64,000 nt of DNA from a virus (Duplodnaviria > Caudoviricetes). Below, piece after piece: positions 29,917-47,030 of this stretch; within the stretch, counting starts at the first letter, position 1, and each line of letters begins with the position of its first letter. The DNA lies in the IMG/VR virus record IMGVR_UViG_3300026274_000001. One strand, given 5' to 3'. Made by a program: the position numbers and the translations under genes. Under the pieces are notes generated by a model. The model was given only the letters and a program-made list of their open reading frames with translations, ran no database searches and was not told the origin of the DNA.

Positions 29917-29932
29917 TCGCAAATAGCAACAT

Positions 29933-29962
29933 AAACGGCGAGCTAATAGCTCGCCGTTTCTT
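29933..29962 (+). terminator. intrinsic terminator
   Basis: AAACGGCGAGCTA-A-TAGCTCGCCGTTTCTTT. Confidence 0.8.
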
Positions 29963-29974
29963 TGAGTAAAATAC

Positions 29975-30328: not shown

Positions 30329-30330
30329 CA

Positions 30331-30870
30331 ATGAATAAAAATCTCACAGATTTAAGTAAGTTCCTCAGTTACGTTCTGCGTCACAAGCCAGAGTCCATTG
30401 GCCTAAAGCTTGACAGCGAAGGCTGGGCCGACATTGCAGAATTGATGGCAAAACAGCAAGCAAATGGTCCAGTTGCCATGTTGCTGGATGACATTATGAC
30501 TGTTGTGGCTGACAACGACAAAAAGCGCTTTGAAGTGAAGGATGGGAAAATTCGTGCGGTGCAAGGACATTCATCCAAACAAGTTGATCGAGAATTCAAA
30601 GCCGTAGTGCCGCCAGTGAAATTGTTTCATGGCACGGCAACCAAGTTTGTAGACTCAATTCTCAAGCAAGGATTACAGCCACAGTCTAGACATCATGTTC
30701 ACCTGTCTGCTGATATCGAAACTGCGGTAAAAGTCGGTCAGCGTCACGGTAAGGTGGTGGTATTTGAAGTTGATTCAAAGCGTATGTATGCTGATGGAAT
30801 CAAGTTCTTCCAAGCTGAAAATGGCGTCTGGTTGACGGACGTAGTACCAGCCAAGTACCTGTCACAATAA
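30331..30870 (+). CDS. kptA: RNA 2'-phosphotransferase Tpt1/KptA
   Basis: SKFLSYVLRH; KKRF; IRAVQGHS; LFHGT; RHHVHLS; NGVWL. Confidence 0.93.
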   Translation: MNKNLTDLSKFLSYVLRHKPESIGLKLDSEGWADIAELMAKQQANGPVAMLLDDIMTVVADNDKKRFEVKDGKIRAVQGHSSKQVDREFKAVVPPVKLFHGTATKFVDSILKQGLQPQSRHHVHLSADIETAVKVGQRHGKVVVFEVDSKRMYADGIKFFQAENGVWLTDVVPAKYLSQ

Positions 30871-30934
30871 GCTTTGCTATGACTGTAACACTCGTATAAC
30901 ATTACCTTACCACGTTTTACAACAACGGGAGGGG

Positions 30935-31942
30935 ATGATGAAAAAGTATGTTGCAGTCATAGCAGCACTGATGTTAGCTGGTTGTGGGGGAGGGGGCGGT
31001 GGTGATAATTCAAATACGTCAGCCGCGTCCACGCCGGCTAGTTCACCCACACCAGCATCAAGCCCAGCGGTGGTTACCGCTTCAGCACAAGGCATTTACA
31101 ACACTTCAGTAGGTGCAACGGGCGCACTGACTAATATAGTATTGCCTGATGGTTCGTTTTACATATTCAATGTCAATAATGCAGTCTTTACTGACATTGT
31201 TATTGGTGATAGTACGGTAACATCAACAACCATCAATTCCACAAACGCGGTTGATTTTTCATTCGCAAATGCAAGCAGCACCAATGTTTTGCTTGCGGCA
31301 ACTTATGTGTCGAAACAGACCCTTAATGGTTCGTTAACGATAACGAGTCAAGTAGTACCGTTTGCTAGTGATTATAACCAAGCATACGACAACACGATCG
31401 CATTGACTCAAATAGCTGGTGCGTATACGGGGGCGAATGCAACGCTTAGCGGCCCCGTACAAAATCAGATCACGATAAAACCTGATCTTTCTTTCATAGG
31501 GGTGTCAAGTACCTGTCAGTATGCTGGACAATTAACTGCAAGTCATGGTTCACTTTATACGGTAACCATTACATTCCCTGCAGGTTGTCCGTTTGCCGGT
31601 ACAGCGATAACTGGTATTGCAACATTTGATCCAACTCTCAACCAGCTAACCATCGTTGCGTCGCCCCAAAATCGAGCCGATGTGTTTCTTGCTATAGATA
31701 CCATGCCTGCAACAGCACCAAGCACCGCTCCAGGTACTTGTAGTGTGTTTGCACCGTCGTCAAGCTGTTCACCTCTAGGTACTGTTCCCGCAGCCACTAC
31801 ACCTGCTAGCTCAACTTCCGCTACGCCATCAAGCCCAGCAAGTGGAACGACACAAACCGGTAGTGGGACTGAGACGTGCACTAATCCGACAGGCTGCACG
31901 TCAAGTGGTAGTACGACAACGGGGGCCACGGCAGGTACGTGA
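30935..31942 (+). CDS. Ser/Thr/Pro-rich outer-membrane lipoprotein (CGGGGGG type)
   Basis: Lipobox LAGC followed by G6; low-complexity linkers; beta-rich core. Confidence 0.8.
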   Translation: MMKKYVAVIAALMLAGCGGGGGGDNSNTSAASTPASSPTPASSPAVVTASAQGIYNTSVGATGALTNIVLPDGSFYIFNVNNAVFTDIVIGDSTVTSTTINSTNAVDFSFANASSTNVLLAATYVSKQTLNGSLTITSQVVPFASDYNQAYDNTIALTQIAGAYTGANATLSGPVQNQITIKPDLSFIGVSSTCQYAGQLTASHGSLYTVTITFPAGCPFAGTAITGIATFDPTLNQLTIVASPQNRADVFLAIDTMPATAPSTAPGTCSVFAPSSSCSPLGTVPAATTPASSTSATPSSPASGTTQTGSGTETCTNPTGCTSSGSTTTGATAGT

Positions 31943-31974
31943 TATTATAAGTTGCATCAAGTAACAGTAATTTT

Positions 31975-32003
31975 AACGGGAAGCAATTGCTTCCCGTTTT
32001 TTT
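31975..32003 (+). terminator. intrinsic terminator (24-bp perfect palindrome)
   Basis: AACGGGAAGCAATTGCTTCCCGTT plus T-tract. Confidence 0.85.
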
Positions 32004-32016
32004 ACGTAAAATTTAC

Positions 32017-32044
32017 TTGCGTGCCATGCTAACTTTGCTAGACT
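32017..32044 (+). promoter_or_regulatory. sigma70-type promoter
   Basis: TTGCGT-16-TAGACT. Confidence 0.55.
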
Positions 32045-32086
32045 AACCTGCACCAAAAACTAGATACTGCAAAGACTAGATTAGTC

Positions 32087-32311
32087 ATGGAGGACGACTT
32101 GAACGAATTTGTATTTTTTCGATATGCCGCGAGAAATTTCTGTGTTAGAACCTCTCTGGTGGGAAACAAGGATGAGTTAGATTCGTTCTTGAATGATATT
32201 CAAAATGAATATGCTAGATTGAATGTGAATTCACCTCATCATATTATCGCTGTGGAAAGCTATCAGAAAGCCCTAGATGCTTACCGAACTGCATTGACGC
32301 GTCTTACCTAA
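32087..32311 (+). CDS. hypothetical protein
   Basis: ORF between promoter elements. Confidence 0.5.
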   Translation: MEDDLNEFVFFRYAARNFCVRTSLVGNKDELDSFLNDIQNEYARLNVNSPHHIIAVESYQKALDAYRTALTRLT

Positions 32312-32324
32312 CTGGTAATTATAC

Positions 32325-32360
32325 TTGACTAAAAGCCATATGATTGTACTATATGGCTTT
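32325..32360 (+). promoter_or_regulatory. early promoter, hairpin family
   Basis: TTGACT-16-TACTAT; AAAGCCATAT/ATATGGCTTT. Confidence 0.8.
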
Positions 32361-32440
32361 CCTGTTTGGAAGAACAGAAGGCATGTACTAGACTACTAGC
32401 GCATGACAACAATATTTACTGGCTAATTTGGAGGTTTCAT

Positions 32441-32632
32441 ATGCATATCAGCGAAATCAAACTTGACCGAGTTTACATGTTCACCAAGAGCGGAAACGAA
32501 GTACGTGTTCAGAACGTTATCACTGACGGCGACTATAAGGGTATGATTCAAGTGGAACGTACCACGTCAGGTAAGAAGATGCTGGTTACGGCTGCTGGTC
32601 TGGAAGAAGTTCCGGCCTACGAGCTGGATTAA
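32441..32632 (+). CDS. small SH3-like hypothetical protein
   Basis: SD GGAGG. Confidence 0.7.
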   Translation: MHISEIKLDRVYMFTKSGNEVRVQNVITDGDYKGMIQVERTTSGKKMLVTAAGLEEVPAYELD

Positions 32633-32634
32633 AC

Positions 32635-32823
32635 ATGCCCACGCAATACAAACAAGAACCCAAATTCACCAAGGGACGTATTATTCGCAACCTCGCTGCG
32701 GTAGTTGTTGGCAGTGGGGGTGCGTGTTTGCTATTAAACGGCGGAGTGCCTAGTATCATACTTGGTATTGGATTGGTGCTGGTTGCATTCGTGTTGCTCG
32801 AACGAGAACTGACAACAGGCTAA
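32635..32823 (+). CDS. small two-TM membrane protein
   Basis: Hydrophobic hairpin. Confidence 0.65.
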   Translation: MPTQYKQEPKFTKGRIIRNLAAVVVGSGGACLLLNGGVPSIILGIGLVLVAFVLLERELTTG

Positions 32824-32840
32824 ATTTGTTCATTTGGTGC

Positions 32841-32882
32841 TTGACTGGTTACCAGGTGAGTGTATCATTTGATACATGGTAA
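32841..32882 (+). promoter_or_regulatory. early promoter, hairpin family
   Basis: TTGACT-16-TATCAT; CAGGTGA-N5-TCATTTG; ATG at 32876 in frame with gene. Confidence 0.88.
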
Positions 32883-32902
32883 ACAACGTTAAGGAGCTAC
32901 AA

Positions 32903-33247
32903 ATGTCGAAGCAAACGAAAATCCTGTCCCTCGAAGACTTCCTTGTAGATGTGAACGACGGTAAGATGTTTACTGTGACGTTTGTTAAGAAGACGGACGG
33001 CGAGCTGCGCACTATGACTGCACGTCGCGGCGTTAGCAAGGGCGTTAAGGGAGTTGCAATTGATCGCGCAGGTGAAGACAAGCGTAACAACGTTCTTACC
33101 GTGTATGACATGCAAAAGCTGGAAGAAGGCAAGGATGAAAAAGGTGCTTTCCGGCGCATCAACCTGGAGTCGCTGGTTTCCTTGAAGCACAAGGGCAAGC
33201 AGTACGCTTACGCACACGCACGCCAAGAGTTTGTTGAACTGGCATAA
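32903..33247 (+). CDS. WYL_2/DUF2693-like SH3-fold protein
   Basis: FTVTFVKKTDGELRTMTA...VYDM...AFRRINLESL. Confidence 0.7.
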   Translation: MSKQTKILSLEDFLVDVNDGKMFTVTFVKKTDGELRTMTARRGVSKGVKGVAIDRAGEDKRNNVLTVYDMQKLEEGKDEKGAFRRINLESLVSLKHKGKQYAYAHARQEFVELA

Positions 33248-33267
33248 CGCGTAGCTAGCGCAAACAC

Positions 33268-33294
33268 ACGAAGAGCCCCAGTGGGGCTCTTCGT
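33268..33294. terminator. hairpin, probable terminator
   Basis: ACGAAGAGCCCC-AGT-GGGGCTCTTCGT. Confidence 0.7.
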
Positions 33295-33311
33295 CATTAT
33301 AAAATTAGTGT

Positions 33312-33578
33312 ATGATAATTGAAAACGCTGTTGTCATAGAAGAAACTGATATCACCGCCGACTTGGGCGGTCACCGTTATCCTGTATTCAATATCACGTT
33401 TAGCGTTGATCCTGAACGGGTCGCTTACCAAATCCAAACATTTAGTATTAAGGAAGCGTTTAGGAAAGCGAAAGAATACGGTCGATGCTCCCCCATTTAT
33501 TTTAAGGGCCTAGACTACAATCTGCCTAAATTGGTGGACGAAATACTAAAATTGCAACTTTATTTGACTTTTGAATGA
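33312..33578 (+). CDS. paralog family B member
   Basis: PIYFK...LVDEILKLQLYLT. Confidence 0.7.
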   Translation: MIIENAVVIEETDITADLGGHRYPVFNITFSVDPERVAYQIQTFSIKEAFRKAKEYGRCSPIYFKGLDYNLPKLVDEILKLQLYLTFE

Positions 33579-33846
33579 CATGTATCCATACGATCGTATC
33601 TATATAAAAAAATTACTAACTCTATTTGACGGTGGAGATCCAGTTCCCAATGCGTTTTTGGTATCAGCGTCAGTGAACTTGATACCAATTAGTATGAAGT
33701 ATGTTGGATTCATGAACGCACTGCACTGGGCAAAAAAACTGCGAGAAAGCAACGAACCCATTTATTTCAAGTTAAGTGATGATGCCATACCGCAATTGAT
33801 CGACGACGTGCTAGAATTACAACTTTATTTGACTTACTGCAACTGA
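33571..33846 (+). CDS. paralog family B member
   Basis: PIYFK...LIDDVLELQLYLT. Confidence 0.7.
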   Translation: MNDMYPYDRIYIKKLLTLFDGGDPVPNAFLVSASVNLIPISMKYVGFMNALHWAKKLRESNEPIYFKLSDDAIPQLIDDVLELQLYLTYCN

Positions 33847-34262
33847 TGGCTAAGAACGGTGGGAAGCATTACAAATACTTCATGTTTTATCATAAATTGG
33901 CGCTTGATCCGTACTGGCAAAAAAGTTTTAAGCAGTTGTATGAAAGCGAACCCTTTTACTTGCTAACTAGACAACAAAGTCGGTGGCATCTACGGATCCC
34001 GATGGTGCAGTATGGTGAAGTTAGACATGTTGGCATAACTACGTTGATTAAAAAAGAATTGTTCAACGTACAGAGCAGGAAGAGAAAGGGATTTACCCTT
34101 GATGAATTGATGGTATATTTTCATGATTTGAGAATAGTGTGGGGTGATTTTCCCCTGCATGTTCGAGTTGGATTCGGACCTGGTGGATCGTACATTACCG
34201 AAGACGTAACACATGAAGATGAGCTTATAATACAGTTGAAGTATATGAATGTTGCTTGCTGA
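33846..34262 (+). CDS. paralog family B member
   Basis: WHLRIPM; EDELIIQL. Confidence 0.7.
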   Translation: MAKNGGKHYKYFMFYHKLALDPYWQKSFKQLYESEPFYLLTRQQSRWHLRIPMVQYGEVRHVGITTLIKKELFNVQSRKRKGFTLDELMVYFHDLRIVWGDFPLHVRVGFGPGGSYITEDVTHEDELIIQLKYMNVAC

Positions 34263-34273
34263 CGGAGGTTGAT

Positions 34274-34570
34274 ATGAGTGAACAGAACAAAGAATTGTGG
34301 GTGGAGGAATACGGATACACGGACTACGTTGAATTTCCAAATGAAAACAACGCGTGTATTAATCGCCTCATGTTCACTCACGCGCTCATCTCCGAGTTGA
34401 CAGAAAGCGGGATGTACGGGGACCGTTGGTGCTACCACAGCTACGAAGCGGCAAAGGCTGCTCTGGATGCATGGGATGGCGAAGGGGAGCCAACAGGCTG
34501 GCATCGTCACCCAACTACGGGACGTCGTCGTGAAAACGGTGATCCACAAAAAGAAACCATCAATTGGTGA
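34274..34570 (+). CDS. hypothetical phage protein interrupting the family B array
   Basis: SD GGAGG; RWCYHSY...WDGEGEPTGWHRHP. Confidence 0.75.
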   Translation: MSEQNKELWVEEYGYTDYVEFPNENNACINRLMFTHALISELTESGMYGDRWCYHSYEAAKAALDAWDGEGEPTGWHRHPTTGRRRENGDPQKETINW

Positions 34571-34573
34571 CCT

Positions 34574-35014
34574 ATGGCCTACTCTCGTTATAAGTATTTC
34601 AAGAATGTGAAAGCCATGCAGTGGGGAAAGCCGGCTGTTGAAAAGGCATTTCTTCAACAAGTATGGCCGGAATCGACTAAGTGTCATTTTTCTCTTGTGA
34701 AAAATGAAGGCGACAACTGGGAGATCAATATCCCATTATTGAACACTAAAGATGATTCAATTGAATTTCAAACTCTTGAATGCTACAGTGAATATTCAAG
34801 TAACTGGGATGGAGTTTATGATGGAACGGGCTTCTTTGAAATAGCCGGCCAATATCCATACAAGACGTTTCGTGATGCATTTATGGCAGCTAAAGAATTA
34901 AAAGAGATTTATGCCAATTTGCCAATTGTAGTGGTTCCTGTAAGTGGCCAAGACGGTGTTATAATTGGCACAACCAACGCAGATGAAGTTGCCGCCGTTC
35001 TAACCTATAGCTAA
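34574..35014 (+). CDS. paralog family B member
   Basis: WEINIPL; DAFMAAKEL; ADEVAAVLT. Confidence 0.7.
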   Translation: MAYSRYKYFKNVKAMQWGKPAVEKAFLQQVWPESTKCHFSLVKNEGDNWEINIPLLNTKDDSIEFQTLECYSEYSSNWDGVYDGTGFFEIAGQYPYKTFRDAFMAAKELKEIYANLPIVVVPVSGQDGVIIGTTNADEVAAVLTYS

Positions 35015-35019
35015 CTCGA

Positions 35020-35298
35020 ATGACTACAGGAATTATCACGATAACTGCTCGCCCAGACGGTTATCACTACTCAGTTAGATCTCCTATTCATCAACCACCC
35101 ATAATGACTAAAGTATATTGGCCTTGCGGACCACAGAAGATAACGGCGGCCATTAAAGCTGCTCAGCATCTACAGTCTGCTATGAAAAACGCCAGTCATC
35201 CAGTCACTTATCGTATCTTTGCCGGTTTCGAAGATGGAGAATATATCTCGATAGAAACAGAGAACGACGTGTTGCAAGTAACATTGGCGTTAGGGTAA
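35020..35298 (+). CDS. paralog family B member
   Basis: AAIKAAQHL; IETENDVLQVTL. Confidence 0.7.
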   Translation: MTTGIITITARPDGYHYSVRSPIHQPPIMTKVYWPCGPQKITAAIKAAQHLQSAMKNASHPVTYRIFAGFEDGEYISIETENDVLQVTLALG

Positions 35299-35300
35299 TC

Positions 35301-35651
35301 ATGCACCGCAATAAATTGAATATGCTAGAGCCTGAACTTGGCGAAGTTTTGATCTGGAAGGATCGAACCGACGACGATGAGTGGGATGAGTGGGTTGTTG
35401 AATATTCCGCCTTAGAACGACGGGTTGATTCAATTAGCTGGATTACTTGCTACCATCCAATTTATGGCTTGAAAGCCTCGATATTATTAGCTAGAAAGAA
35501 AGTTGAAGAAATAAAGCATAGTCTCAAAGGCCAAGACGAATCAGTATCATATGGGGTATTCTTCCTAATACCCGACAACGATGACTATGTGGACATCACA
35601 GAGGATGCATCAACCATCCAAGTTCTGTTTCAATACGATAATTATAAATGA
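35301..35651 (+). CDS. paralog family B member
   Basis: LKASILLA; ITEDASTIQVLF. Confidence 0.65.
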   Translation: MHRNKLNMLEPELGEVLIWKDRTDDDEWDEWVVEYSALERRVDSISWITCYHPIYGLKASILLARKKVEEIKHSLKGQDESVSYGVFFLIPDNDDYVDITEDASTIQVLFQYDNYK

Positions 35652-36049
35652 CACAACTAAAATATTTTGAACCAAGTACTCGAATCGCTCTGGCTGATGA
35701 AATGCTGCCATTACTAGTCAATCAAGGGTTATGGTACGAACTGCGTGAAACCACCTCATATGGTTGGCAGCTTTATGTTCCCATGTTGGTGAACAAACAC
35801 ACACATCATTTTATCAATTTAAGGATTACTCAACCAAGTTGGTTGGGAGCGAAGTGCTTGGTGAAATTCGAAACTATCGATCTTTCACTTAAAGAGGCGA
35901 TTTTGATTCTTCAGGAGCTACAGCTGGTATACACTAGACTTGAAACTAGAGTACTTTCTGGTGACTGGCGCAACAGCGATACTTACGAAACGATATCCGC
36001 AGATTGTAGTGATGCTGAACTACTGCAATTCATACTGGCTCACTGTTAG
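35648..36049 (+). CDS. paralog family B member
   Basis: WQLYVPM; SLKEAI; SDAELLQFIL. Confidence 0.7.
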   Translation: MTQLKYFEPSTRIALADEMLPLLVNQGLWYELRETTSYGWQLYVPMLVNKHTHHFINLRITQPSWLGAKCLVKFETIDLSLKEAILILQELQLVYTRLETRVLSGDWRNSDTYETISADCSDAELLQFILAHC

Positions 36050-36052
36050 CTC

Positions 36053-36091
36053 TTGTGTGATTCACCTTGCGAAGCTATCATATGAATTATG
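36053..36091 (+). promoter_or_regulatory. early promoter, hairpin family
   Basis: TTGTGT-17-TATCAT; TGATTCA/TGAATTA arms; ATG at 36089. Confidence 0.75.
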
Positions 36092-36111
36092 GTTAAACGC
36101 AAGGATATAAA

Positions 36112-36423
36112 ATGAATATTGGTGTACATACTTCCCACTGCTGCGCTCGTCATGGCTGCAAATACAGCAACGATGAATGCCCCGTGGTGCTTGGCACGCA
36201 TAAGCAGGAGTACCCCTGTGAGTTCTGCGGAGAGGAAGCAATTCAACTCGAACACGACGCGCAATACTTCGCAACGCACCCAGATCGATTCATTGAATTG
36301 CTTCAGGCAATTAATATGGCTCCTGAAATTGAAGAAGGAATTCATCGGGTAATAAAGGATGCTCTTAAGCAGTTTGGAATTGATACGAGTGAAACTGAAT
36401 TGACTGGAGCCAAAAATGTCTGA
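36112..36423 (+). CDS. Cys/His-rich hypothetical protein
   Basis: HCCARHGCKY...CP...CEFC. Confidence 0.7.
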   Translation: MNIGVHTSHCCARHGCKYSNDECPVVLGTHKQEYPCEFCGEEAIQLEHDAQYFATHPDRFIELLQAINMAPEIEEGIHRVIKDALKQFGIDTSETELTGAKNV

Positions 36424-36850
36424 TCTTGAAGTAGCCAGAATTGATATAAATGGCTTTAAAGTGCCGGCCACGTATCACGATGCTTTGTTGCTACTGATCG
36501 ATGCATTGACCTACGGCGAAGTCAACATGGGCTGGAGTGATATGGTCGGGTTTATGGGTGGGACGATGCTTGATAAGCAAACCCCAGTTGGTTTTTTCCT
36601 GACCGCTGATCAGATTCGAGACTATACTAAATCACCAAGTCCGGTTGAAGAATACGGCGCAATCAACTTTGAAACGATGTTCAGTATGCACATTGACGAC
36701 ATCGTTGAAATCCAAAGCTGGTTCAACGTATTGAAGGACAAAGTCAAAGATCAGAATGAAGATCCCAATACCGCCCGTGTTGACATGATCGAGTGGATTC
36801 GCACGCTATTGGATCTGCGTGTTGATTATCCAAATCCAGCCATAATTTAA
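36416..36850 (+). CDS. paralog family C member (PATYHDA)
   Basis: INGFKVPATYHDAL. Confidence 0.78.
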   Translation: MSDLEVARIDINGFKVPATYHDALLLLIDALTYGEVNMGWSDMVGFMGGTMLDKQTPVGFFLTADQIRDYTKSPSPVEEYGAINFETMFSMHIDDIVEIQSWFNVLKDKVKDQNEDPNTARVDMIEWIRTLLDLRVDYPNPAII

Positions 36851-36865
36851 ACTGGCAATAAGTGC

Positions 36866-36897
36866 TTGACGTTCATTGTAGTTGCCATATAATTGGC
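36866..36897 (+). promoter_or_regulatory. promoter, TTGCCA/TGGCAA dyad class
   Basis: TTGACG-16-TATAAT; TTGCCA..TGGC; upstream AACTGGCAA. Confidence 0.75.
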
Positions 36898-36930
36898 TTC
36901 TATAATTCAATTTGAGTAACGGACAAGCAC

Positions 36931-37437
36931 ATGAAATATGAAGTTGAATACAATTTTATTCACGATCGTCAAATCCCAGCAACATACCACGATGCAATCA
37001 AAAAAGTCATCAATGCGGTAAAGAAAGGTAAGCTACATCCTATCCAGTCAAATGACACCTCTGATACCATCTTCAACGAAAAGAAGGGCAAGTACGTTGA
37101 GGCATTTTCATTGTTGGGTCTTTTTCTGAATGAAACCGAACGTAAACGATTTGATTTCAATGATCAATTCGTTTATGGTGACAAGGGAGTAACCGTACGG
37201 AAACTGTTGGGTATCAACAAGCTTGAACTTAAAACCATCTTTGGTATGAAGCTCAAGGACCTCAAGAAACTCAATGATACGTATGTTGACTTTGCTGAAG
37301 AATATGATAGCGACTTGGTCTTCTTTGATGAAAATGAAGCGGTCGACATGTTCAAACATGATTTCATCGAACACTTGGAGTCATTGCTGTGTCATGCAGA
37401 AAACTATATCAATCCCGGAATTTCCGCTATTGATTAA
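36931..37437 (+). CDS. paralog family C member
   Basis: IHDRQIPATYHDAI. Confidence 0.78.
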   Translation: MKYEVEYNFIHDRQIPATYHDAIKKVINAVKKGKLHPIQSNDTSDTIFNEKKGKYVEAFSLLGLFLNETERKRFDFNDQFVYGDKGVTVRKLLGINKLELKTIFGMKLKDLKKLNDTYVDFAEEYDSDLVFFDENEAVDMFKHDFIEHLESLLCHAENYINPGISAID

Positions 37438-37460
37438 AATGGCAAGGCTTTATTAAAACG

Positions 37461-37497
37461 TTGACTTGGCTCATATGCTTGTGTAGCGTATGAGCCA
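37461..37497 (+). promoter_or_regulatory. hairpin promoter (twin 1)
   Basis: TTGACT-17-TAGCGT; TGGCTCATATGCT/AGCGTATGAGCCA. Confidence 0.8.
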
Positions 37498-37517
37498 TAA
37501 TAACGACGGAGAGTGTC

Positions 37518-37988
37518 ATGTCATCTACTACATTCACTAGAATTACCGTAGGGAATAGGGAAGTGCCAGCCAGCTTTCATGATGCATTACTGAAGCTAAA
37601 GGATGCGACCGCTAAGCAGTGGGTATCACTTGAATCTGATGGTGGGTATTCAGTTGTTAAAGGTGATAAAAAGATCTACTGTGCGATTGGTTATTTGCTT
37701 CCGTTAGATTTTCGTAAACAGTTGGTTGACTGCGACAAGTTTGTTAACGATCTACCAGAAGTACTCGGTATTGAACAGCATGAATTAGAAGTGGTGATGG
37801 GTGTGGCAATGGAAGACGCGATTGAAATTCAAACCAAGTTTGATGATCTTTCTCGCAATTACCTAACTGCTACTCATCAACCATATGTGCGCATTGAAGC
37901 AGTAAAAGCGGCGTTTGCCGAAAACCGCAAAGCATGGAATCAGTTTTTGACTGGCTTGTTTGAACGAGAAAACTATTCGTTTGAATAA
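37518..37988 (+). CDS. paralog family C member
   Basis: VGNREVPASFHDAL. Confidence 0.78.
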   Translation: MSSTTFTRITVGNREVPASFHDALLKLKDATAKQWVSLESDGGYSVVKGDKKIYCAIGYLLPLDFRKQLVDCDKFVNDLPEVLGIEQHELEVVMGVAMEDAIEIQTKFDDLSRNYLTATHQPYVRIEAVKAAFAENRKAWNQFLTGLFERENYSFE

Positions 37989-38001
37989 TCATTATTGCAC
38001 G

Positions 38002-38038
38002 TTGACTTGGCTCATATGATCTCATATCATATGAGCCA
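38002..38038 (+). promoter_or_regulatory. hairpin promoter (twin 2)
   Basis: TTGACT-17-TATCAT; perfect TGGCTCATATGAT/ATCATATGAGCCA. Confidence 0.88.
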
Positions 38039-38059
38039 TCGTACTACAGGAGAACGATA

Positions 38060-38524
38060 ATGACTGTGAAATACAACTTGATCAATATCAATGGGTTCGA
38101 CGTGCCAGCCACGTTCCATGATGCTATCTTTAAAATCAAGGATGGGTTTCAAAAGGGGATGATTTCATTCTACACTGATACCTTCTGCGTAACGCATGAT
38201 GCTATTAAGGATAAGAACGTGTTCAGCGCTGTTGGCTATTTACTTACCCGCAAGCAGCGTATGATTATTGACGAGCTGCAATTGAGCGACGGCGCAGTGT
38301 TGTTCACCGACGAACAAGTCATTAAGCTTGTTGGTGAAGCGAATCTGTCCGCTATGTTGGGTATGACGTTGAAAGATGCCAGTGACCTGAAAGTGCAATT
38401 TGAAGAAATTAGCGAAGGTATTGGCATTAACAGTATTGAAATCGTTCGCCAGAACTTTAACAAATATTTGAATAATTTGCTTACTCGCCCCAACTACGAA
38501 AATCCCGCACTTGTCTACGCATAA
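38060..38524 (+). CDS. paralog family C member
   Basis: INGFDVPATFHDAI. Confidence 0.78.
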   Translation: MTVKYNLININGFDVPATFHDAIFKIKDGFQKGMISFYTDTFCVTHDAIKDKNVFSAVGYLLTRKQRMIIDELQLSDGAVLFTDEQVIKLVGEANLSAMLGMTLKDASDLKVQFEEISEGIGINSIEIVRQNFNKYLNNLLTRPNYENPALVYA

Positions 38525-38552
38525 CAATTCGTAGTTAATAAGCTTTCTCTGT

Positions 38553-38584
38553 AAAATGGCGGAATTAAGGTTCCGCCATTTTGT
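38553..38584 (+). terminator. intrinsic terminator
   Basis: AAAATGGCGGAA-TTAAGG-TTCCGCCATTTT. Confidence 0.8.
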
Positions 38585-38601
38585 TTGGAACAGGGAAAAC
38601 G

Positions 38602-38922
38602 ATGTCACAAAAACTAGAACAATTCGACAACATTAATATGAATCTGCACCTTCTCTCCGAAGAGTGCAAAGAAGTTGGTATGTGCTGCTCCAAAGCACTG
38701 CGCTTTGGTCTCATGGATGTAGACCCAGATAATCCTCTTGCCGTTCCCAAGTATGTTCAATTAGAACAAGAGATTGGTGACGTATTGGCTCTTATTGATA
38801 TTCTCAAATCAAATGATATTGGTTTGACTGACGAGGGTATTGAAGCAGCGAAGCAGCGTAAGTTTAAAAAGCTTGCGGGTTATTACGGAGCTTTCGTTGT
38901 AAATACATCGTTAAGGAAATAA
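38602..38922 (+). CDS. MazG-like nucleotide pyrophosphohydrolase
   Basis: LSEECKEV...KALRFG...LEQEIGDVL. Confidence 0.75.
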   Translation: MSQKLEQFDNINMNLHLLSEECKEVGMCCSKALRFGLMDVDPDNPLAVPKYVQLEQEIGDVLALIDILKSNDIGLTDEGIEAAKQRKFKKLAGYYGAFVVNTSLRK

Positions 38923-39147
38923 ATGAAAGCCAGTCGTTGGTCTGCTAGAAAGGCCAAGAAGCGCGCTCCCAAGCGAGTAGTATCCGGGACACCAGTAGCG
39001 GCTACCAGAGTAGCCATGAAGAGTCTAGTGACACCACAAGCAATTCCCTTAGCACTATTTGAACAGAAACTCATTGCACTACAGAGCCTAGTGCTTAGTC
39101 GCTTGCGGGATAAAAAACATGATTCGAAAGGGATTGGACGCAGCTAA
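38923..39147 (+). CDS. basic hypothetical protein
   Basis: Abuts previous stop; SD AAGGA. Confidence 0.55.
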   Translation: MKASRWSARKAKKRAPKRVVSGTPVAATRVAMKSLVTPQAIPLALFEQKLIALQSLVLSRLRDKKHDSKGIGRS

Positions 39148-39331
39148 ATTTTTAGCTCTTATTAGCGTCTTTATTGGTTCATTGGCGGCCATGACAGTAA
39201 TTATTTTACTGTCTGGTGTCCATGAACAGAAGCAATACATCACAGAATGTGGTAAAGAACAGGTTGTATCTTTATGTGCTGATAAATGGCGCACAAGAGA
39301 AAACGTCATCGTAACTAAGGTGGCGTTCTAA
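39119..39331 (+). CDS. small membrane protein
   Basis: N-terminal TM. Confidence 0.6.
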   Translation: MIRKGLDAAKFLALISVFIGSLAAMTVIILLSGVHEQKQYITECGKEQVVSLCADKWRTRENVIVTKVAF

Positions 39332-39354
39332 ATATAAAAACTTAAGGCAAAACG

Positions 39355-39465
39355 ATGGTCGTATTTCCACTGTTGATCATTATTGGCATCATGTGGCTGG
39401 TTGCTACGGCAGAGCACGATGTGAAGATGCGTATTCAAAAGCATAACCAAGAGAAGGGGCAATAA
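39355..39465 (+). CDS. small membrane peptide (36 aa)
   Basis: MVVFPLLIIIGIMWLV...; TAATG-coupled to next gene. Confidence 0.55.
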   Translation: MVVFPLLIIIGIMWLVATAEHDVKMRIQKHNQEKGQ

Positions 39466-39767
39466 TGGATCGTAATAATAAAATTGTAAATGGTATGTGC
39501 ACGACATCTCGTCATGATTTTGGACTTGATAAAGTAGAAGGTAGTTTGTCAAGCGGTATGACTGAAGCAGAACGCGATTCATTATACCGTGAAATGAATC
39601 AACTCTATTACCATAATGTGCTGCCGGTAATTAGTGCATTGGAATATGAGCTGGACGGTATGACAGATGAAATTGCAACATTGAAAGCTGAAAATACTAA
39701 ACTGATAAATGAATTACGTCATGAACGTGACTTAGTGCAGCGATATCAGAACAACGGTCAGTTCTGA
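39465..39767 (+). CDS. hypothetical protein with coiled coil
   Basis: CxTxRHDFGL motif. Confidence 0.7.
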   Translation: MDRNNKIVNGMCTTSRHDFGLDKVEGSLSSGMTEAERDSLYREMNQLYYHNVLPVISALEYELDGMTDEIATLKAENTKLINELRHERDLVQRYQNNGQF

Positions 39768-39774
39768 AACAACG

Positions 39775-39798
39775 AAGGGGAGCAATTGCTCCCCTTTT
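39775..39798. terminator. bidirectional terminator at the convergence of the + and - blocks
   Basis: Perfect palindrome AAGGGGAGCAATTGCTCCCCTT. Confidence 0.8.
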
Positions 39799-39814
39799 CT
39801 ACGACTGTTACTTC

Positions 39815-41119
39815 TTACTGAACTGGACTTGCTGCGATTGCCGACTTAAGTGTGCTATATGTTGCTTTTTTGGCCGTAGCACTAGTCATTACACCAAATG
39901 CATCGTTGGGATAATCATATAGTTCATACCATTCAGCACCAATAACATTGTATGCTGCCTTAGCTGCAACCAGCTCTGGGATCGTCTTAGTGATATATGC
40001 CTGCTGTGCCGCAGTGGATTGATCTGGACTAGAGCCAATCTCAGTAAACATGATGGGCAAATTGAACAACGTGTGCAATTGAGCCAGCGTGTTGTACGTA
40101 CCTTGATTACCGATCGCATTCTCGAAGTCACCACCATCCTGATACCAATGCCAGTTAATGATATCAGTTACGACTTTCTGATGCCCTGATGTTCCGTCAG
40201 GCTGCGTACCATTAAGCATACCAGCCACCCAACCAACACGAGTCCAGCCAGCAGCGGCGGTTGCCATAATTTTAGTAGTGTGCTGAGTATCAACAGAATG
40301 CCATCCATCTGCAGAACCACGCAGCGAACCTCTCCAGATAGGCCACGTATTGTTATCAAAGTCAGTTACGTTTTGGCCATCATTGGCAATTGCCGCGTTA
40401 TGACTATCAATGTCATATTCATTACCAAATTCAACTACCGGGATGCCCTTAAATGCGGTTGCTGCATGAGCGGCAATAGTGTACGCATAGGCATACGCGC
40501 TCGCTTCTGTCGGTGTGCTGCCATTCAGGGACGGATCATTCCACGGGTAAGGGATGATACACGGTAGGACTTGTACATTAGCACCAAGCCCTGGAATTAC
40601 TGTGGATGCAATTGTGTCAATGTCCTGCGTCGAGTACATATCCTGTCGGAAGCTACGAACACCCAAATCCGCCAGTGATGCTGCTTGAGTGCTTAGTGGT
40701 ACCGTCTGTGACAAACCGCCCTGTACATAATGCCCATTGATACCATAAAACGGAATAGCTGCGGCTGTCGGGGTGGTGGGCGTTACTGGAGTTACCGGTA
40801 CCGTGGGGGTAACTGGTGTAACGGGAGTTACTGGCACGGTAGGATTCGACGGAGTTACTGGTGTCGATGGAGTCACAGGGGAAGCAGGCGTGGTTGTTAC
40901 CGGAGTAACGGGCGATGCTGGAACAGTTGCCCCAACGCTTGCTGGTGTGCTTGATGGAATGCCGGCGATTCCAGCATCACTTGCGGTGCTAGCTGCTGAT
41001 GCTGGAGCAGCCGCGCCGGTGGTAGTCTTTGTGGGATCTGAACCTCCACCGCCACATGCGGCCAGTGCAAAAATCGATGCACTAACAAAGAGTGAAGTAA
41101 AAAGTTTTGAATGCTGCAT
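39815..41119 (-). CDS. lipoprotein with clan GH-A (beta/alpha)8 glycoside hydrolase domain
   Basis: Lipobox LAAC-GGGGS; PVT-repeat linker; GINGH; VVEFGNE (acid/base); IMFTEIG (nucleophile). Confidence 0.78.
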   Translation of the reverse strand: MQHSKLFTSLFVSASIFALAACGGGGSDPTKTTTGAAAPASAASTASDAGIAGIPSSTPASVGATVPASPVTPVTTTPASPVTPSTPVTPSNPTVPVTPVTPVTPTVPVTPVTPTTPTAAAIPFYGINGHYVQGGLSQTVPLSTQAASLADLGVRSFRQDMYSTQDIDTIASTVIPGLGANVQVLPCIIPYPWNDPSLNGSTPTEASAYAYAYTIAAHAATAFKGIPVVEFGNEYDIDSHNAAIANDGQNVTDFDNNTWPIWRGSLRGSADGWHSVDTQHTTKIMATAAAGWTRVGWVAGMLNGTQPDGTSGHQKVVTDIINWHWYQDGGDFENAIGNQGTYNTLAQLHTLFNLPIMFTEIGSSPDQSTAAQQAYITKTIPELVAAKAAYNVIGAEWYELYDYPNDAFGVMTSATAKKATYSTLKSAIAASPVQ

Positions 41120-41230
41120 AGTTACCTTATTTGTAATAGTTCTGCCATCTTTTATGGCAATCCTATTCTACAAACATGGTAATAAAAAACAATCTACGCT
41201 TTCCGTGTATAGATGCCAAATATAGATGGC

Positions 41231-41261
41231 AAAAGGGTTTGCCCGTTAGACAAACCCTTTA
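41231..41261. terminator. intrinsic terminator
   Basis: AAAAGGGTTTG...CAAACCCTTTT. Confidence 0.8.
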
Positions 41262-41301
41262 GTTACACAAACTTTATAATTAACTACCAATTCAGTAGCT
41301 A

Positions 41302-41484
41302 TTACGGATAATAAACCGTCCAATCCACGTCACGCCATGCTTCTTCGAGAACATCGATGTACTTCATCAATTCTTCTTTCGTCATACGATCCGGAGCACC
41401 CTGGGGAGCATGTGCGTGAAGAACAATCTTTTGCATCGCATCACGAAGTGCCAGTTCCGTAATACGATCGCTATCATAAGCCAT
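41302..41484 (-). CDS. hypothetical protein
   Basis: SD AAGGAG. Confidence 0.7.
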   Translation of the reverse strand: MAYDSDRITELALRDAMQKIVLHAHAPQGAPDRMTKEELMKYIDVLEEAWRDVDWTVYYP

Positions 41485-41499
41485 TTCGTTCTCCTTTCT

Positions 41500-41543
41500 G
41501 TTTACCATGTTCAAATGATACATTCACCTAAACATGGTTGCAA
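41500..41543 (-). promoter_or_regulatory. early promoter, hairpin family
   Basis: TTGCAA-17-TATCAT; 15-bp stem with 3 G-T pairs; ATG at 41508. Confidence 0.9.
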
Positions 41544-41548
41544 GCATT

Positions 41549-41890
41549 TTATTCATCCGACCATTCGTTTATGGGAACGCTACCAGTTTCAGCTAGCAGT
41601 TTTTCGCCATCCCAGGCAAGGAAGAATAAGTTCTCTGCATAACCACCTTCATTGTCGTCTTCCCAAAGAAAGGAATTGTTGTGGCGGTGAATTGCCATCA
41701 CGACCCATTCTTCGTAGCCTTGAGCTGCAAATGCTTCAACCAATTCTTCACACGTAATGTCCTTGAACATTACGTCATCACCGTCCATTGTGACGCGATC
41801 ACCGTATTTGGCTTTGCACGAATTAAACAATTCAACGTAAGCTTGCTTGCGCGGAAAATGCGAGTTCTTGAGGGTGACTTCAACTTTCAT
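41549..41890 (-). CDS. hypothetical protein
   Basis: SD AAGGAG. Confidence 0.75.
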   Translation of the reverse strand: MKVEVTLKNSHFPRKQAYVELFNSCKAKYGDRVTMDGDDVMFKDITCEELVEAFAAQGYEEWVVMAIHRHNNSFLWEDDNEGGYAENLFFLAWDGEKLLAETGSVPINEWSDE

Positions 41891-41912
41891 CTTGTTCTCC
41901 TTGTTTACAGAC

Positions 41913-41950
41913 CAGGTTCAAATGATATACTCACTTGAACATGCAAGCAA
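41913..41950 (-). promoter_or_regulatory. early promoter, hairpin family
   Basis: TTGCTT-17-TATCAT; CATGTTCAAGTGA/TCATTTGAACCTG. Confidence 0.88.
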
Positions 41951-41959
41951 GCTTTTCCT

Positions 41960-44101
41960 TTATTGCCCAGTATAACCCTGTGGTACGGTCGCATTGGCTG
42001 CTGCAACTGTCGCATTTGTCGATACTACATATTGGGGAACTTCAGTGAGTGTTAGTGTCACCTGACCATTGGTATATGGGACTGTAGTCACGTTACCATA
42101 GCCATCAATATCAGTCACGTTACCTGAAGTACCTGCCGAATCAACTTGAAGCGTGTATGGGGTTGAGTATGTCTGACTATAAAGTCCACCGGTTGCTGGC
42201 CACTGTGCATTGTTGTGTGTCCATGCAGCAGTCACGACCTTACCACCACCAAGTTGTTGAAATGCATATGCAAACACACCCGCGGGAGCACTTGTGATTC
42301 GACCTAACGTATTAGTACCATCGAGTGCTCTCGTCATAGCTGCGAATACCATAGCTTCAGGCTTCGGAGACAAATTAGATGCACCGTATGCCCCTTGTGC
42401 ATCGTTCAGGTCGAAGAAGGTACCGTATCCAACTTCACCTGGATAATCTGATCCATAGAACAGGGTCGTCAATTGTGCCCCACCGCCGAGCGTGATAATG
42501 TGTGCCCTAACTCCAACCGCAGCTTGAGCAAACAACTGATTTTGCGATGGTGATGTGGGTCCATAGTTAATACCCGGATCATAGCTTGCTCCAGCTTCAG
42601 TTACGAACAACTTCATATTCGGCTTGCCGGCTTGCATGACTGATCGCAATAGAATCAATTGATTATCAAGTGCATTGGCTTGATTGGCTGGATCTGGATC
42701 TGAGTCCTGTAATTCGGGCGGATGGGCTGGATATGTGCCAGCATTCCAATAACCATGGGTTGACACCGCATCGATATAATTCCATAGACCAAGAGCACCA
42801 TAAGTCTGCAAATAACCCGATGTGCAAGTATTGCAGTTTGCCGCGAATGGATTAGTGGTCCCCATCACCACCGCATTTGGATCGGTTGAATGAATCCCCA
42901 GATATGCGGCTTTGAATAGAGTAACAAAATTCGCAGAAATGTCAGCCCATCCTAGGCTTGGTTCCCATGTCACCTGATAATAATTGTTTTGCTGATTTGG
43001 ATAATTTGCCGCCTTGATTGCACTAGTGTCAGTACCAACCTTAGCCATGAAACTCTGATATTCAGTTAGATTCACGGGGGCATAATATGAATCCGTGTAT
43101 GCGCCAGTTGGACTATTCCAAGCGGGAATACCATCAAGACGCACTATGCGCATCTGGTCAGGGTTAGCCTTGTAGAATGGGTCCAGGTCGCTCACGCTTG
43201 GGGTATACGTGTTAGGGCCGTTTGGCTCCATGACAGATTGTTCTCGATCATCAATCGTCCATGAAATACCCAAGTCATGCAATGCGGCAATGTTGTCATT
43301 GAACCCCTGCATGCCGAATCGATGCTGATCCTGGTGGGCATAAGTTACTGTACCGATAACTGACGACAGGTTAGGCAAAACACCGAATGTGGCTATACCA
43401 GTGGGTCGTGTGCCCATAGTCGGTAACGTGCCTCCATTAGATTGCAATGTGGCCGAGATCGCTCCATAACCCGACCATGTTGATACGCATGCCATAGTGT
43501 TAGTCAACGTTCCGGTTCCAACTGGAAAACTACCTTGTGTACGGATAGTACCAGTGGCATCAACTATTGACCATATTACCGTATCAGCACTTGGTGAATT
43601 GGTGGTTACTGTAAGATTGAATGGCGTATTATTTTGGAAAATACGCATACCATCAGTGGTAGTGGTATCAACGCTGATTAATCCATTGGCGGTGCCGCCT
43701 GCTGATTTGGTTGGTGCACCACAACTAATAGCTGATGTGGTACCAGGTACCACAGGTGTAGTTGGATTTGCTGGGGAGGTGGCCGACGCTGCGGTGGAAC
43801 TACCAATTGCAGCCCCCGTAGTGCCTGCTGGCGCTGTTGCACTGGAACCAGTAGTGCTAGGAGACGTGGAACCGGGAGCGGCGGTTGTAGCTGATCCTGT
43901 AGTGTTAGGAGTGTTAGGAGTGCTGGTAGTGCCAGTTGTACTAGGGTCACCTGTCGCACCAGCAGCACTTGCACCACTTGCGGCGCTTGCAGCGCTTACA
44001 CTACTTGTTCCATTAGAACTACCGCCGCCACCTCCACAAGCTGATAGCGAAGTGATTGCGGCACTAACCATCAATGCCATTAATAGTTTGTTCATTATCA
44101 T
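41960..44101 (-). CDS. lipoprotein with GH39-like (clan GH-A) glycoside hydrolase and beta-sandwich domains
   Basis: Lipobox LSAC-GGGGGSS; S/T/P/A linker; YYQVTWEP; DAVSTHGY; LFVTEAG; C-terminal LTLTEVPQYV. Confidence 0.78.
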   Translation of the reverse strand: MIMNKLLMALMVSAAITSLSACGGGGGSSNGTSSVSAASAASGASAAGATGDPSTTGTTSTPNTPNTTGSATTAAPGSTSPSTTGSSATAPAGTTGAAIGSSTAASATSPANPTTPVVPGTTSAISCGAPTKSAGGTANGLISVDTTTTDGMRIFQNNTPFNLTVTTNSPSADTVIWSIVDATGTIRTQGSFPVGTGTLTNTMACVSTWSGYGAISATLQSNGGTLPTMGTRPTGIATFGVLPNLSSVIGTVTYAHQDQHRFGMQGFNDNIAALHDLGISWTIDDREQSVMEPNGPNTYTPSVSDLDPFYKANPDQMRIVRLDGIPAWNSPTGAYTDSYYAPVNLTEYQSFMAKVGTDTSAIKAANYPNQQNNYYQVTWEPSLGWADISANFVTLFKAAYLGIHSTDPNAVVMGTTNPFAANCNTCTSGYLQTYGALGLWNYIDAVSTHGYWNAGTYPAHPPELQDSDPDPANQANALDNQLILLRSVMQAGKPNMKLFVTEAGASYDPGINYGPTSPSQNQLFAQAAVGVRAHIITLGGGAQLTTLFYGSDYPGEVGYGTFFDLNDAQGAYGASNLSPKPEAMVFAAMTRALDGTNTLGRITSAPAGVFAYAFQQLGGGKVVTAAWTHNNAQWPATGGLYSQTYSTPYTLQVDSAGTSGNVTDIDGYGNVTTVPYTNGQVTLTLTEVPQYVVSTNATVAAANATVPQGYTGQ

Positions 44102-44139
44102 TTCCTAAAGTATATTGCCATGTTTGTATGGCAAGGTAT

Positions 44140-44167
44140 ATATTAAGGAAATGAAGTGAATTGTCAA
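44140..44167 (-). promoter_or_regulatory. sigma70-type promoter, flanked by TTGCCAT/ATGGCAA dyads
   Basis: TTGACA-16-TAATAT on the - strand. Confidence 0.6.
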
Positions 44168-44213
44168 CAGTAATGGCAAAACCAAGTTTGCCATTATGTG
44201 TTCTATAGATGGT

Positions 44214-44242
44214 AAAAGGGTCTACAAGACGTAGACCCTTTT
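44214..44242. terminator. intrinsic terminator
   Basis: AAAAGGGTCTAC-AAGAC-GTAGACCCTTTT. Confidence 0.8.
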
Positions 44243-44261
44243 ATTCTTTTGTAACTGGTTG

Positions 44262-44702
44262 TTATTTGGCTTTGTCAGGGAATATCATCATAGTGCGCAT
44301 GAATGGATCATATTCCATAAACGTAGTCATGTACATTTCTTTACCGCAAAAATACACTTTGTTGGTGCCACCACCAGCCACCTTACCGTCATACTTGCTC
44401 CATACGAAATCCGGAGCATACGGATCACCAGCGATTGCAACAAACCTCATCAGGTTCGCAGTCATTTCGTTATCGGTGCGGCTAGCGTGATGCTTGAGCC
44501 CTTTGTATTGATGTACCCCAAGTAAGCACAATTCCAAACCAACTTGACCCAGAATTACTTTAAGGATTTCATATTGCTCTCGGTATATACGTGAGAATCC
44601 GAAGTCGTCTGGGTGGCCTACGAATGTTTGGGTGGGGAATTTGAGCGTTTTCTTTTCGAAACCAGTTCGAATACGCGGGGGATAGTTGTGGGGATAATAC
44701 AC
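44262..44702 (-). CDS. hypothetical protein
   Basis: SD GGAGG; GTG start. Confidence 0.7.
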   Translation of the reverse strand: MYYPHNYPPRIRTGFEKKTLKFPTQTFVGHPDDFGFSRIYREQYEILKVILGQVGLELCLLGVHQYKGLKHHASRTDNEMTANLMRFVAIAGDPYAPDFVWSKYDGKVAGGGTNKVYFCGKEMYMTTFMEYDPFMRTMMIFPDKAK

Positions 44703-44711
44703 AGCACCTCC

Positions 44712-44759
44712 TGAAGTTTTACCATACTAGATGATAGCTTCAGTTGGTGCATAAATCAA
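44712..44759 (-). promoter_or_regulatory. early promoter, hairpin family
   Basis: TTGATT-17-TATCAT; TGA-N5-TCA; ATGGTAAAA at 44725. Confidence 0.8.
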
Positions 44760-44761
44760 AC

Positions 44762-45121
44762 TCAATCACCCTGCCATACAGCAGTCGGACAAAGTACCGC
44801 CAGGTGCATCATCTGAATCAACGCTATTTTCACGTTGCCTTCAGTGGCCTTCCAGTAATCTTCATCCGTATCATCTGCTAATTTACTAATAGCAGTGGCG
44901 ATAAGCGGCCAGGATTCCATTCCAGTTTTGCCGTACAGAACGCGAATGCCTTCTTCCGGGTCCAGAACCTTACGCAGGATCGCTCCATAGTTGTACGTGA
45001 TGTTGATGCTGGCGTGGTCATCACCGCCGACAACATACGTGCCTTGACGTAAGTCCAGCTTCATAGGAAGCTTCGCACAGTCACCAGTCTTCTGATCAAT
45101 CAAATCAATATCATAACTCAT
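44762..45121 (-). CDS. hypothetical phage protein
   Basis: MSYDI...NITYNY...YWKATEGN. Confidence 0.75.
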   Translation of the reverse strand: MSYDIDLIDQKTGDCAKLPMKLDLRQGTYVVGGDDHASINITYNYGAILRKVLDPEEGIRVLYGKTGMESWPLIATAISKLADDTDEDYWKATEGNVKIALIQMMHLAVLCPTAVWQGD

Positions 45122-46379: not shown

Positions 46380-46387
46380 ATGCTAGA

Positions 46388-46558: not shown

Positions 46559-46573
46559 GTGAGTCCTTTATTA

Positions 46574-47014: not shown

Positions 47015-47030
47015 TTACACCACGCAAAAT

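Follow-up and report, generated by a model that had tools for sequence, protein, structure and literature searches.

Two predicted promoters in a 64,000-bp stretch of viral DNA (IMG/VR record IMGVR_UViG_3300026274_000001; referred to here as the window) lie in front of neighboring paralogous genes, and each carries an inverted repeat that overlaps its −10 box. The locus raises the question of whether such repeats are kept as recognition sequences in double-stranded DNA or as a fold of one strand, and of how nearly identical promoters came to precede such different genes. A first-pass annotation of the window had favored a single-stranded fold of sense polarity (RNA or non-template single-stranded DNA), citing a compensatory base-pair change between the two promoters and frequent G-T mismatches across a wider promoter family.

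Twin promoters and their genes

The annotated positions, 37461 and 38002, correspond to the first T of each −35 hexamer, and the sequence said to be common to the two elements was confirmed as a 20-mer present in two exact copies (37458-37477 and 37999-38018), matched in none of 100 shuffles of the window. The features of the locus are listed below.

36416-36850 and 36931-37437, + strand: two other paralogs of the twin-driven genes, the second with its own promoter at 36866
37461..37466, + strand: −35 hexamer of twin 1, TTGACT, 17 nt 5′ of the −10
37467..37497, + strand: hairpin of twin 1, 13 bp, arms 37467-37479 and 37485-37497, loop 37480-37484
37484-37489, + strand: −10 of twin 1, TAGCGT, weak (3/6 consensus matches)
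37518..37988, + strand: 156-aa gene with twin 1 as its predicted promoter, one of four tandem paralogs, no Pfam match
38002..38007, + strand: −35 hexamer of twin 2, TTGACT, in a promoter matching 10/12 consensus positions
38008..38038, + strand: hairpin of twin 2, perfect 13-bp stem, arms 38008-38020 and 38026-38038, loop 38021-38025
38025-38030, + strand: −10 of twin 2, TATCAT, after a 17-nt spacer
38060..38524, + strand: 154-aa gene with twin 2 as its predicted promoter, protein 26% identical to that of the 156-aa gene

The four tandem paralogs (36416-38524, + strand) encode an unknown small protein with an N-terminal motif in common, and none matched a Pfam family. As their pairwise protein identity is only 23 to 30%, the twin promoters are far more alike than the genes that they drive. 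Four copies were also found in relatives, and two, without promoters in between, in G001, a 524-kb IMG/VR genome identified by an exact search with the −10 core of the promoter family described below. G001 does not contain the window but is syntenic with it, one checked protein being 52% identical, and its capsid gene is of the T4-type Gp23 (272 bits). The window represents the early region, rich in small genes, of an uncultured soil jumbo phage of the T4 type. It holds about 120 open reading frames (ORFs), mostly small, and most of those checked had no Pfam or PHROG match. No match was returned by DNA and protein searches of the window against a cultured-phage collection or by a protein search of IMG/VR with the twin gene. 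Also inside the early region is a gene encoding a 674-aa hybrid histidine kinase with two PAS, HisKA, HATPase, and receiver domains (54353-56377, − strand), with a family promoter at 54312 directly downstream.

Seven differences separate the twins, all within the central 11 nt that form the hairpin apex, and outside this patch the elements are identical. At pair 12, C37478-G37486 in twin 1 corresponds to A38019-T38027 in twin 2, and at pair 10 the one T.G pair of twin 1 (T37476.G37488) corresponds to T38017-A38029. These coordinates bear out the C-G versus A-T exchange reported for the stem, and likewise the statement that it alters the −10 itself (TAGCGT versus TATCAT). Since all seven differences sit in the central 11 nt, the single compensated pair is not significant by itself, and if there were no selection on the fold, it would be a chance product of a diverged 11-nt patch.

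As sense RNA, twin 1 was predicted to fold with −21.6 kcal/mol (z, −6.8), compared with −17.2 kcal/mol as antisense RNA, and twin 2 with −19.4 kcal/mol (z, −5.8). In both, the pairing register is offset by 2 nt from that of the main family. The −10 of twin 1 fell below the score needed in a consensus promoter scan, yet it was conserved in four related contigs. Neither twin is followed by a T run, and a consensus terminator scan called no terminator at either.

The promoter-hairpin family and its covariation

The twins belong to a family of promoters with hairpins that occupies about 40 gaps between genes in the window (29 to 42 sites, depending on the counting method), and a −10-anchored alignment of 96 sites from G001 gave the same consensus. 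Sites on the + strand end at 38002, and those on the − strand run from 41543 to 57594. Members drawn on below are as follows (L146 and R1 are related contigs introduced in the next section).

86..57594, both strands: whole span of the family in the window, sites lying on the sense strand of their own genes
9233..9265, + strand: 14-bp stem with two G.T; −19.7 kcal/mol sense, −12.4 kcal/mol antisense
10978..11020, + strand: three one-sided G.T-type differences from L146, and one pair restored
17138..17162, + strand: perfect 10-bp stem (promoter at 17129)
32332..32360, + strand: T-A to C-G double stem change in the R1 ortholog (promoter at 32325)
41502..41543, − strand: 15-bp stem with three sense-strand G.T; −18.3 kcal/mol sense, −12.3 kcal/mol antisense

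The consensus of the window and G001 comprises an A/T-rich stretch, GCTTG, a spacer with CA-n-RTGAA at a fixed distance, and a TATCAT −10, followed by TTGAACATGGTAAAC, a GGAG ribosome site, and ATG. The boxes are of the host sigma-70 type, with a TTG-type −35, a 16- to 18-nt spacer, and a TATCAT-type −10, and at nearly every member a GGAG-type site and an ATG follow no more than 25 to 40 nt after the −10. The ATGA of the spacer complements the TCAT of the −10, and many members lengthen this core to 9 to 19 bp, such that the sense strand can fold with its loop just 5′ of the −10 through arms whose sequences vary by site. G001 included perfect stems of 16 and 19 bp whose arm sequences were unique, and five members had predicted fold z values of −4.5 to −6.8. 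Overall, only about 40% of all family sites had a stem score of ≥6.

Two assignments of conserved motifs were rejected. MotA boxes of phage T4 lie 11 to 13 nt from the −10, and GCTTG lies at ∼19 nt; the conserved spacer TG lies 5 to 6 nt, rather than 1 nt, 5′ of the hexamer and is not an extended −10. A classing of promoters as first in unit or internal by open-frame lengths called known + regions opposite and was discarded as unreliable. No Rfam family was matched at the gathering score on either strand of the whole window. A degenerate promoter pattern retrieved 104 stretches from IMG/VR, and all those checked outside G001 were chance matches.

The hairpins of the family are AT-rich and have no T run, and ordinary GC-rich terminators are present elsewhere in the window (e.g., 22665-22689 and 38553-38582). 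A plain terminator role for the stems is not supported. Nor was a replacement of canonical terminators by the hairpin borne out among 125 promoters, as hairpins were retained at 7/16 promoters lying directly behind canonical terminators and at 43/109 others.

Other potential pairings were observed near family promoters. A second class of palindromes has a TTGCCAT / ATGGCAA core in place of ATGA / TCAT (24258-24278, 25277-25306, 26190-26231, 27134-27165, 44115-44134, and 44171-44196), and the one at 24258 was fully conserved in R1 beside a fast-changing spacer. At 36065-36071 / 36098-36104, and also at 15369-15420, complementarity links the 5′ part of the spacer with the ribosome-binding site of the gene that follows; two C-to-T changes in the related contig L036 kept the former pairing as wobble pairs. 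The −10 hexamer can also pair with a conserved ATGGTA six bases downstream (e.g., 8399-8418), forming a second hairpin that is mutually exclusive with the main one. Behind the promoter at 6549, the 5′ leader contains a hairpin of 14 bp whose loop reads ATAGA (6571-6603, + strand). In two elements the −35 hexamer lies in or at a hairpin loop: 22665-22689 (+ strand), which is a canonical terminator, and 53646-53682 (− strand), whose 16-bp stem has a sense-strand G.T and gained a second wobble pair in the related contig L151.

Covariation was assessed in an alignment of 86 sequences from two genomes, the window and G001. Paired cells made up 70.0%, compared with 65.4 ± 0.7% in column shuffles and 31 to 42% in slid registers, and cells changed on both sides numbered 105, compared with 65.5 ± 6.7 and 34 to 72, respectively; for each measure, the observed value was reached by 0/500 shuffles. 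A separate column shuffle gave 501 Watson-Crick pairs against 406 ± 11 expected, and several individual stem pairs had p values of 0.0004 to 0.02. The covariation in a multi-genome alignment that the first-pass annotation had anticipated was thus present across the two genomes. These data bear on a reading without selection on the fold, under which a palindromic consensus would have been copied often and the G.T excess would stem from composition and one conserved purine. Column shuffles already yield 65% pairing, and kinship alone can let sequences beat shuffles without structure; the perfect 16- and 19-bp stems of G001, with their unique arms, argue against this reading. Because shared descent inflates covariation tests, orthologous promoters were also compared.

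The mismatch census behind the annotation was largely reproducible. Its G-T counts at 9233, 41504, 25277, 10491, and 11965 and the A-C pairs at 2714 were recovered, and the four G-T at 57555 were found within 11 pairs by our own pairing. The binomial test that it proposed gave a divided answer. Among 42 hand-curated window sites, with G.T and A.C scored alike, G.T:A.C ratios under different penalties were 31:13, 23:5, 22:4, 13:3, and 32:18 (p, 0.0005 to 0.065), whereas 29 automatically defined sites, each counted once, gave about 10:4-5, which is not significant alone. The raw ratio in G001 was 24:4. Most of the G.T excess was located at the RTGA purine, which faces the invariant final T of the −10. 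Of 125 sites, 61 had A at this position, 38 had G, 18 had T, and 8 had C; A.C is impossible here because the facing T is fixed.

Once this purine was masked, the claimed family-wide excess of sense-strand G-T was no longer significant. In the outer arms, outside the −10, counts of 18:7 to 23:15 were not significant against a null allowing right-arm composition, and positions flanked by Watson-Crick pairs gave a G.T:A.C ratio of 27:22. Column shuffles led to an expectation of 62:38, with p = 0.18 for the G.T-minus-A.C excess and observed/expected ratios of 0.88 for G.T, 0.70 for A.C, and 0.83 for other mismatches. Family-wide, sense RNA was 0.8 kcal/mol stabler than antisense RNA (p = 0.012), a gap that shrank to 0.3 kcal/mol (p = 0.23) with the RTGA G set to A; coding-region controls gave 0.24. 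The outer-arm counts and the shuffled 62:38 are as expected without selection on the fold. Since these four controls leave little beyond the RTGA position, any conclusion on sense polarity is drawn from orthologs and not from the family census.

Orthologous promoters and cassette turnover

Syntenic metagenome contigs found by protein look-ups fell at three distances from the window: L032, L034, L035, L038, L039, L146, and L151 at about 92 to 98% DNA identity; L036, L037, and L149 at about 72 to 90%; and R1, a 27.5-kb contig, at about 70 to 81%. The source metagenomes of the related contigs are JGI 3300029907, 3300063230, 3300063304, and 3300086448 and ENA ERZ27248500. Both twins were present in every contig covering them, each with its own apex. 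Their stems were almost unchanged across contigs, and the loops of twin 2 differed (CTCAT, TTCAT, and ATGTA). The arms were nearly invariant even among strains with genes only 56 to 64% identical in protein, a pattern that a sequence-specific constraint would also give.

Four one-sided stem changes in the twins all left a sense-strand G.T. Two were in twin 1, where C was changed to T opposite G, once in L036 and L037 and once in R1. The other two were in twin 2, where A was replaced by G opposite T, in the right arm in L032, L034, and L035 and in the left arm in R1. In R1, the apex of twin 1 was remodelled to a different self-complementary triplet and also bore a transversion and a change of the A.C type. 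The twin element was found in eight distinct versions, and for 5/5 imperfect ones the predicted sense-RNA fold was stabler than the antisense fold, with margins of 2.3 to 8.6 kcal/mol. In L039, 5 nt were missing at the apex of twin 2 (L039:286-320, corresponding to window 38021-38030), namely, one copy of a directly repeated 5-mer; the loop is shorter and the normal −10 gone, through slip deletion or assembly error.

Elsewhere in the family, three stem pairs of the 17138..17162 hairpin were changed on both sides in R1 (read by hand), and a program identified two double Watson-Crick changes, at the promoters at 32325 and 15363. Across all alignable −10-centred hairpins, a strand-symmetric program counted 15 G.T-type and 4 A.C-type one-sided stem transitions. 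Addition of hand-read stems, which the program had skipped (indels outside the stem) or scored below threshold, brought the tally for orthologous promoters in seven related contigs to 22 G.T-type versus 5 A.C-type. This tally, small at 27 events and partly hand-curated, differed from an even split (p = 0.0015 versus 0.5) and from the right-arm G+T share (p = 0.009 versus 0.58), the latter being the appropriate null should only left-arm positions be able to vary. A hairpin finder accepting Watson-Crick pairing in either genome returned mostly chance stems; it was not used as a measure and served solely as a null control, giving 33 G.T-type and 31 A.C-type changes and 43 transversions in the same regions. 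Relative to these chance stems (33:31), the 22:5 ratio was skewed towards G.T (Fisher's test, p = 0.0096).

The absence of selection on the fold would not account for this ratio, for the double changes that restore pairing between orthologs, or for stems conserved between strains beside fast-changing loops and spacers, and we regard that reading as highly improbable. It appears supported, from these comparisons, that the stems are selected as paired structures and not as one fixed recognition sequence. The 22:5 tally further suggests that the hairpin is kept as a sense-strand fold (RNA or single-stranded DNA), albeit more weakly than the first-pass annotation had thought. Its argument for a fold over a double-stranded recognition sequence stands as far as arms vary by site yet remain complementary, loops are free, stems are kept, and orthologs show a G.T bias; its family-wide G.T excess does not carry the same weight, being mostly one position.

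A double-stranded operator would offer a different account of the dyad, with a dimeric phage or host regulator bound around the −10 to switch the early promoters off or on, and with the RTGA purine and the invariant twin arms as recognition bases. The inner dyad does lie at a fixed distance from the −10 (T in 103/125 sites and G in 91/125), the strand asymmetry is mostly one position, the twin arms are hardly altered across diverged strains, and hairpins persist behind terminators. However, the only half-site common to all family sites is the 4-bp core forced by the −10; beyond it, the arms are unrelated among sites and changed between orthologs, yet complementary. The twins moreover pair in a register shifted by 2 nt, loop sequences change freely, and a protein reading the duplex gives no reason for one-sided changes to favor sense-strand G.T. 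An operator therefore seems decidedly unlikely.

The related contigs also differed in gene content at family elements, as follows.

41550..41955, − strand: cassette of about 406 bp carrying one promoter and a 113-aa ORF, absent in the close strain L034
41502..41543, − strand: family element forming the downstream end of the L034 cassette indel

In L034, a single chimeric promoter is left, with its 5′ side from the upstream copy and its 3′ side from the downstream copy, and the crossover lies inside the −10 core common to both. A 163-aa ORF of the window (52706-53217, − strand) is missing in the close strain L151; the flanks of this gap have 98% identity on one side and 92% on the other, and it adjoins the promoter at 52700 without lying clearly inside it. 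The L034 indel and the two paralog copies of G001 without promoters in between fit recombination between cassettes, as in the papers on promoter-early stem-loops (PeSLs), which were described in the T4-type phages RB49/phi1, T4/PST, and KVP40/nt-1 (Arbiol et al. 2010, PMC2839356; Comeau et al. 2014, PMC4122927). The repeated 60- to 90-nt units could double as homology patches for the gain, loss, and copying of genes. A further trait of PeSLs is the excision of mini-circles through recombination of adjacent elements. Recombination, copying, or conversion between cassettes would explain how near-identical twins come to stand beside 26%-identical genes.

The indel bears on whether the sense strand folds as DNA rather than as RNA, with a hairpin or cruciform forming when the DNA is single-stranded or strongly supercoiled. 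Such a fold could confer supercoiling sensitivity on the promoter or act as a pause or template-switch point driving cassette recombination. The natural crossover inside an element, the possible 5-nt slip deletion at the apex of twin 2 in L039, and the hairpins kept behind terminators are in keeping with it. G.T is the least destabilising mismatch in DNA, so that a sense-strand bias could arise if the sense strand were the lagging-strand template. In a cruciform, however, both strands fold and G.T on one costs A.C on the other, which would leave no strand bias, and selection for a recombination hot spot would be second-order and weak. We consider a DNA fold unlikely, though it merits attention.

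Proposed function and relation to known systems

The position of the hairpin limits which transcripts could contain it. A transcript from the element's own promoter is predicted to start about 7 nt after the −10, inside the right arm. With this start, a promoter's own transcript would lack the left arm and be unable to form the hairpin, and the fold would act in read-through RNA or in single-stranded DNA of sense polarity. In read-through RNA from an upstream cassette, it could attenuate or end the transcript or could provide a processing site or a protective 3′ end, and each small gene would then rely on its own promoter. On balance, we lean towards the twins being two copies of a PeSL-type cassette whose stem probably acts in read-through RNA, as an attenuator, processing site, or 3′-end structure. 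The retention of hairpins behind terminators is not predicted by a pure read-through function.

The hairpin might also serve as a sensor of where a transcript started, as the left arm would be present only in RNA from an upstream cassette. The fold in such RNA would halt, cleave, or silence the message ahead of the next gene, and RNA from the element's own promoter, without the left arm, would be freely translated; in some members (e.g., 36065-36071 / 36098-36104), pairing of the spacer with the ribosome site could add to the effect. If this were true, the orphan genes would be self-contained, insulated, and portable expression units, and the wobble pattern would be the trace of an RNA switch. 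We consider this elaboration doubtful.

Among known systems, the architecture of the elements in the window and G001, as read from their sequences, is that of the PeSL layout. In RB49/phi1, most PeSL stem-loops are located between the two promoter boxes or overlie the −10, and a ribosome site and a start codon follow; RB49 PeSLs had promoter and terminator activity in lacZ fusions, and phage-phage indels end in the elements (PMC2839356; PMC4122927). The present elements share the sigma-70-like early promoter, a stem-loop in one or the other of these positions, and the ribosome site and start codon behind it. They occur likewise in dozens of copies before small orphan genes in a variable region of a T4-type genome, with indels between related phages ending inside elements (here L034, 41550-41955), and their ATGA-loop-TCAT stem core resembles the AGNA-loop-TCNT of T4/PST (PMC4122927). 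They differ in belonging to an uncultured soil jumbo phage (the relative has 524 kb) far from cultured T4-type phages and in having sequence-variable, AT-rich, −10-centred stems of up to 19 bp, whereas those of RB49 and nt-1 are terminator-like, with a G-run/C-run or A3-4G3/C3T3-4. As the stems here have no T run, the terminator activity of RB49, found for one stem, is not simply transferable. Neither covariation nor a wobble bias was reported in the PeSL papers (PMC2839356, PMC4122927), and the word "compensatory" is absent from PMC2839356.

Like intrinsic (Rho-independent) terminators, the hairpins lie between co-oriented genes and would form in the transcript of the upstream gene. The twins differ from them in their low GC content and in having neither a T run nor a terminator call in the scan, which places them outside that class.

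In phage T7, the long early transcript is cut at RNase III processing hairpins located between cistrons, which leaves a protective 3′ stem. Hairpins between the cistrons here could similarly yield single-gene messages, but T7 sites are not built into promoters, and the present stems are shorter than typical substrates. Promoters of the phage N4 virion RNA polymerase consist of a DNA hairpin with a 5- to 7-bp stem and a 3-nt loop, have no −35 or −10, and are used by a phage polymerase. Promoter function tied to a DNA hairpin of one strand would be common to both systems, whereas clear boxes of the sigma-70 type, spaced 17 nt apart, are present in the elements of the window.

The original accounts of PeSLs drew on a small number of cultured phages of the T4 type and presented them as promoter-terminator units with a second role in gene shuffling. 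The elements described here indicate that very large uncultured phages from soil use the PeSL design to run their early region, and they provide what we believe to be the first comparative evidence, from covariation and wobble-biased substitutions, for the stem being kept as a paired structure. Their stems do not resemble terminators and are retained behind genuine ones. Should the fold act in read-through RNA, the elements would be natural insulated expression cassettes, of use as parts in phage engineering; in the case of a fold acting in DNA, they would be built-in recombination seams.
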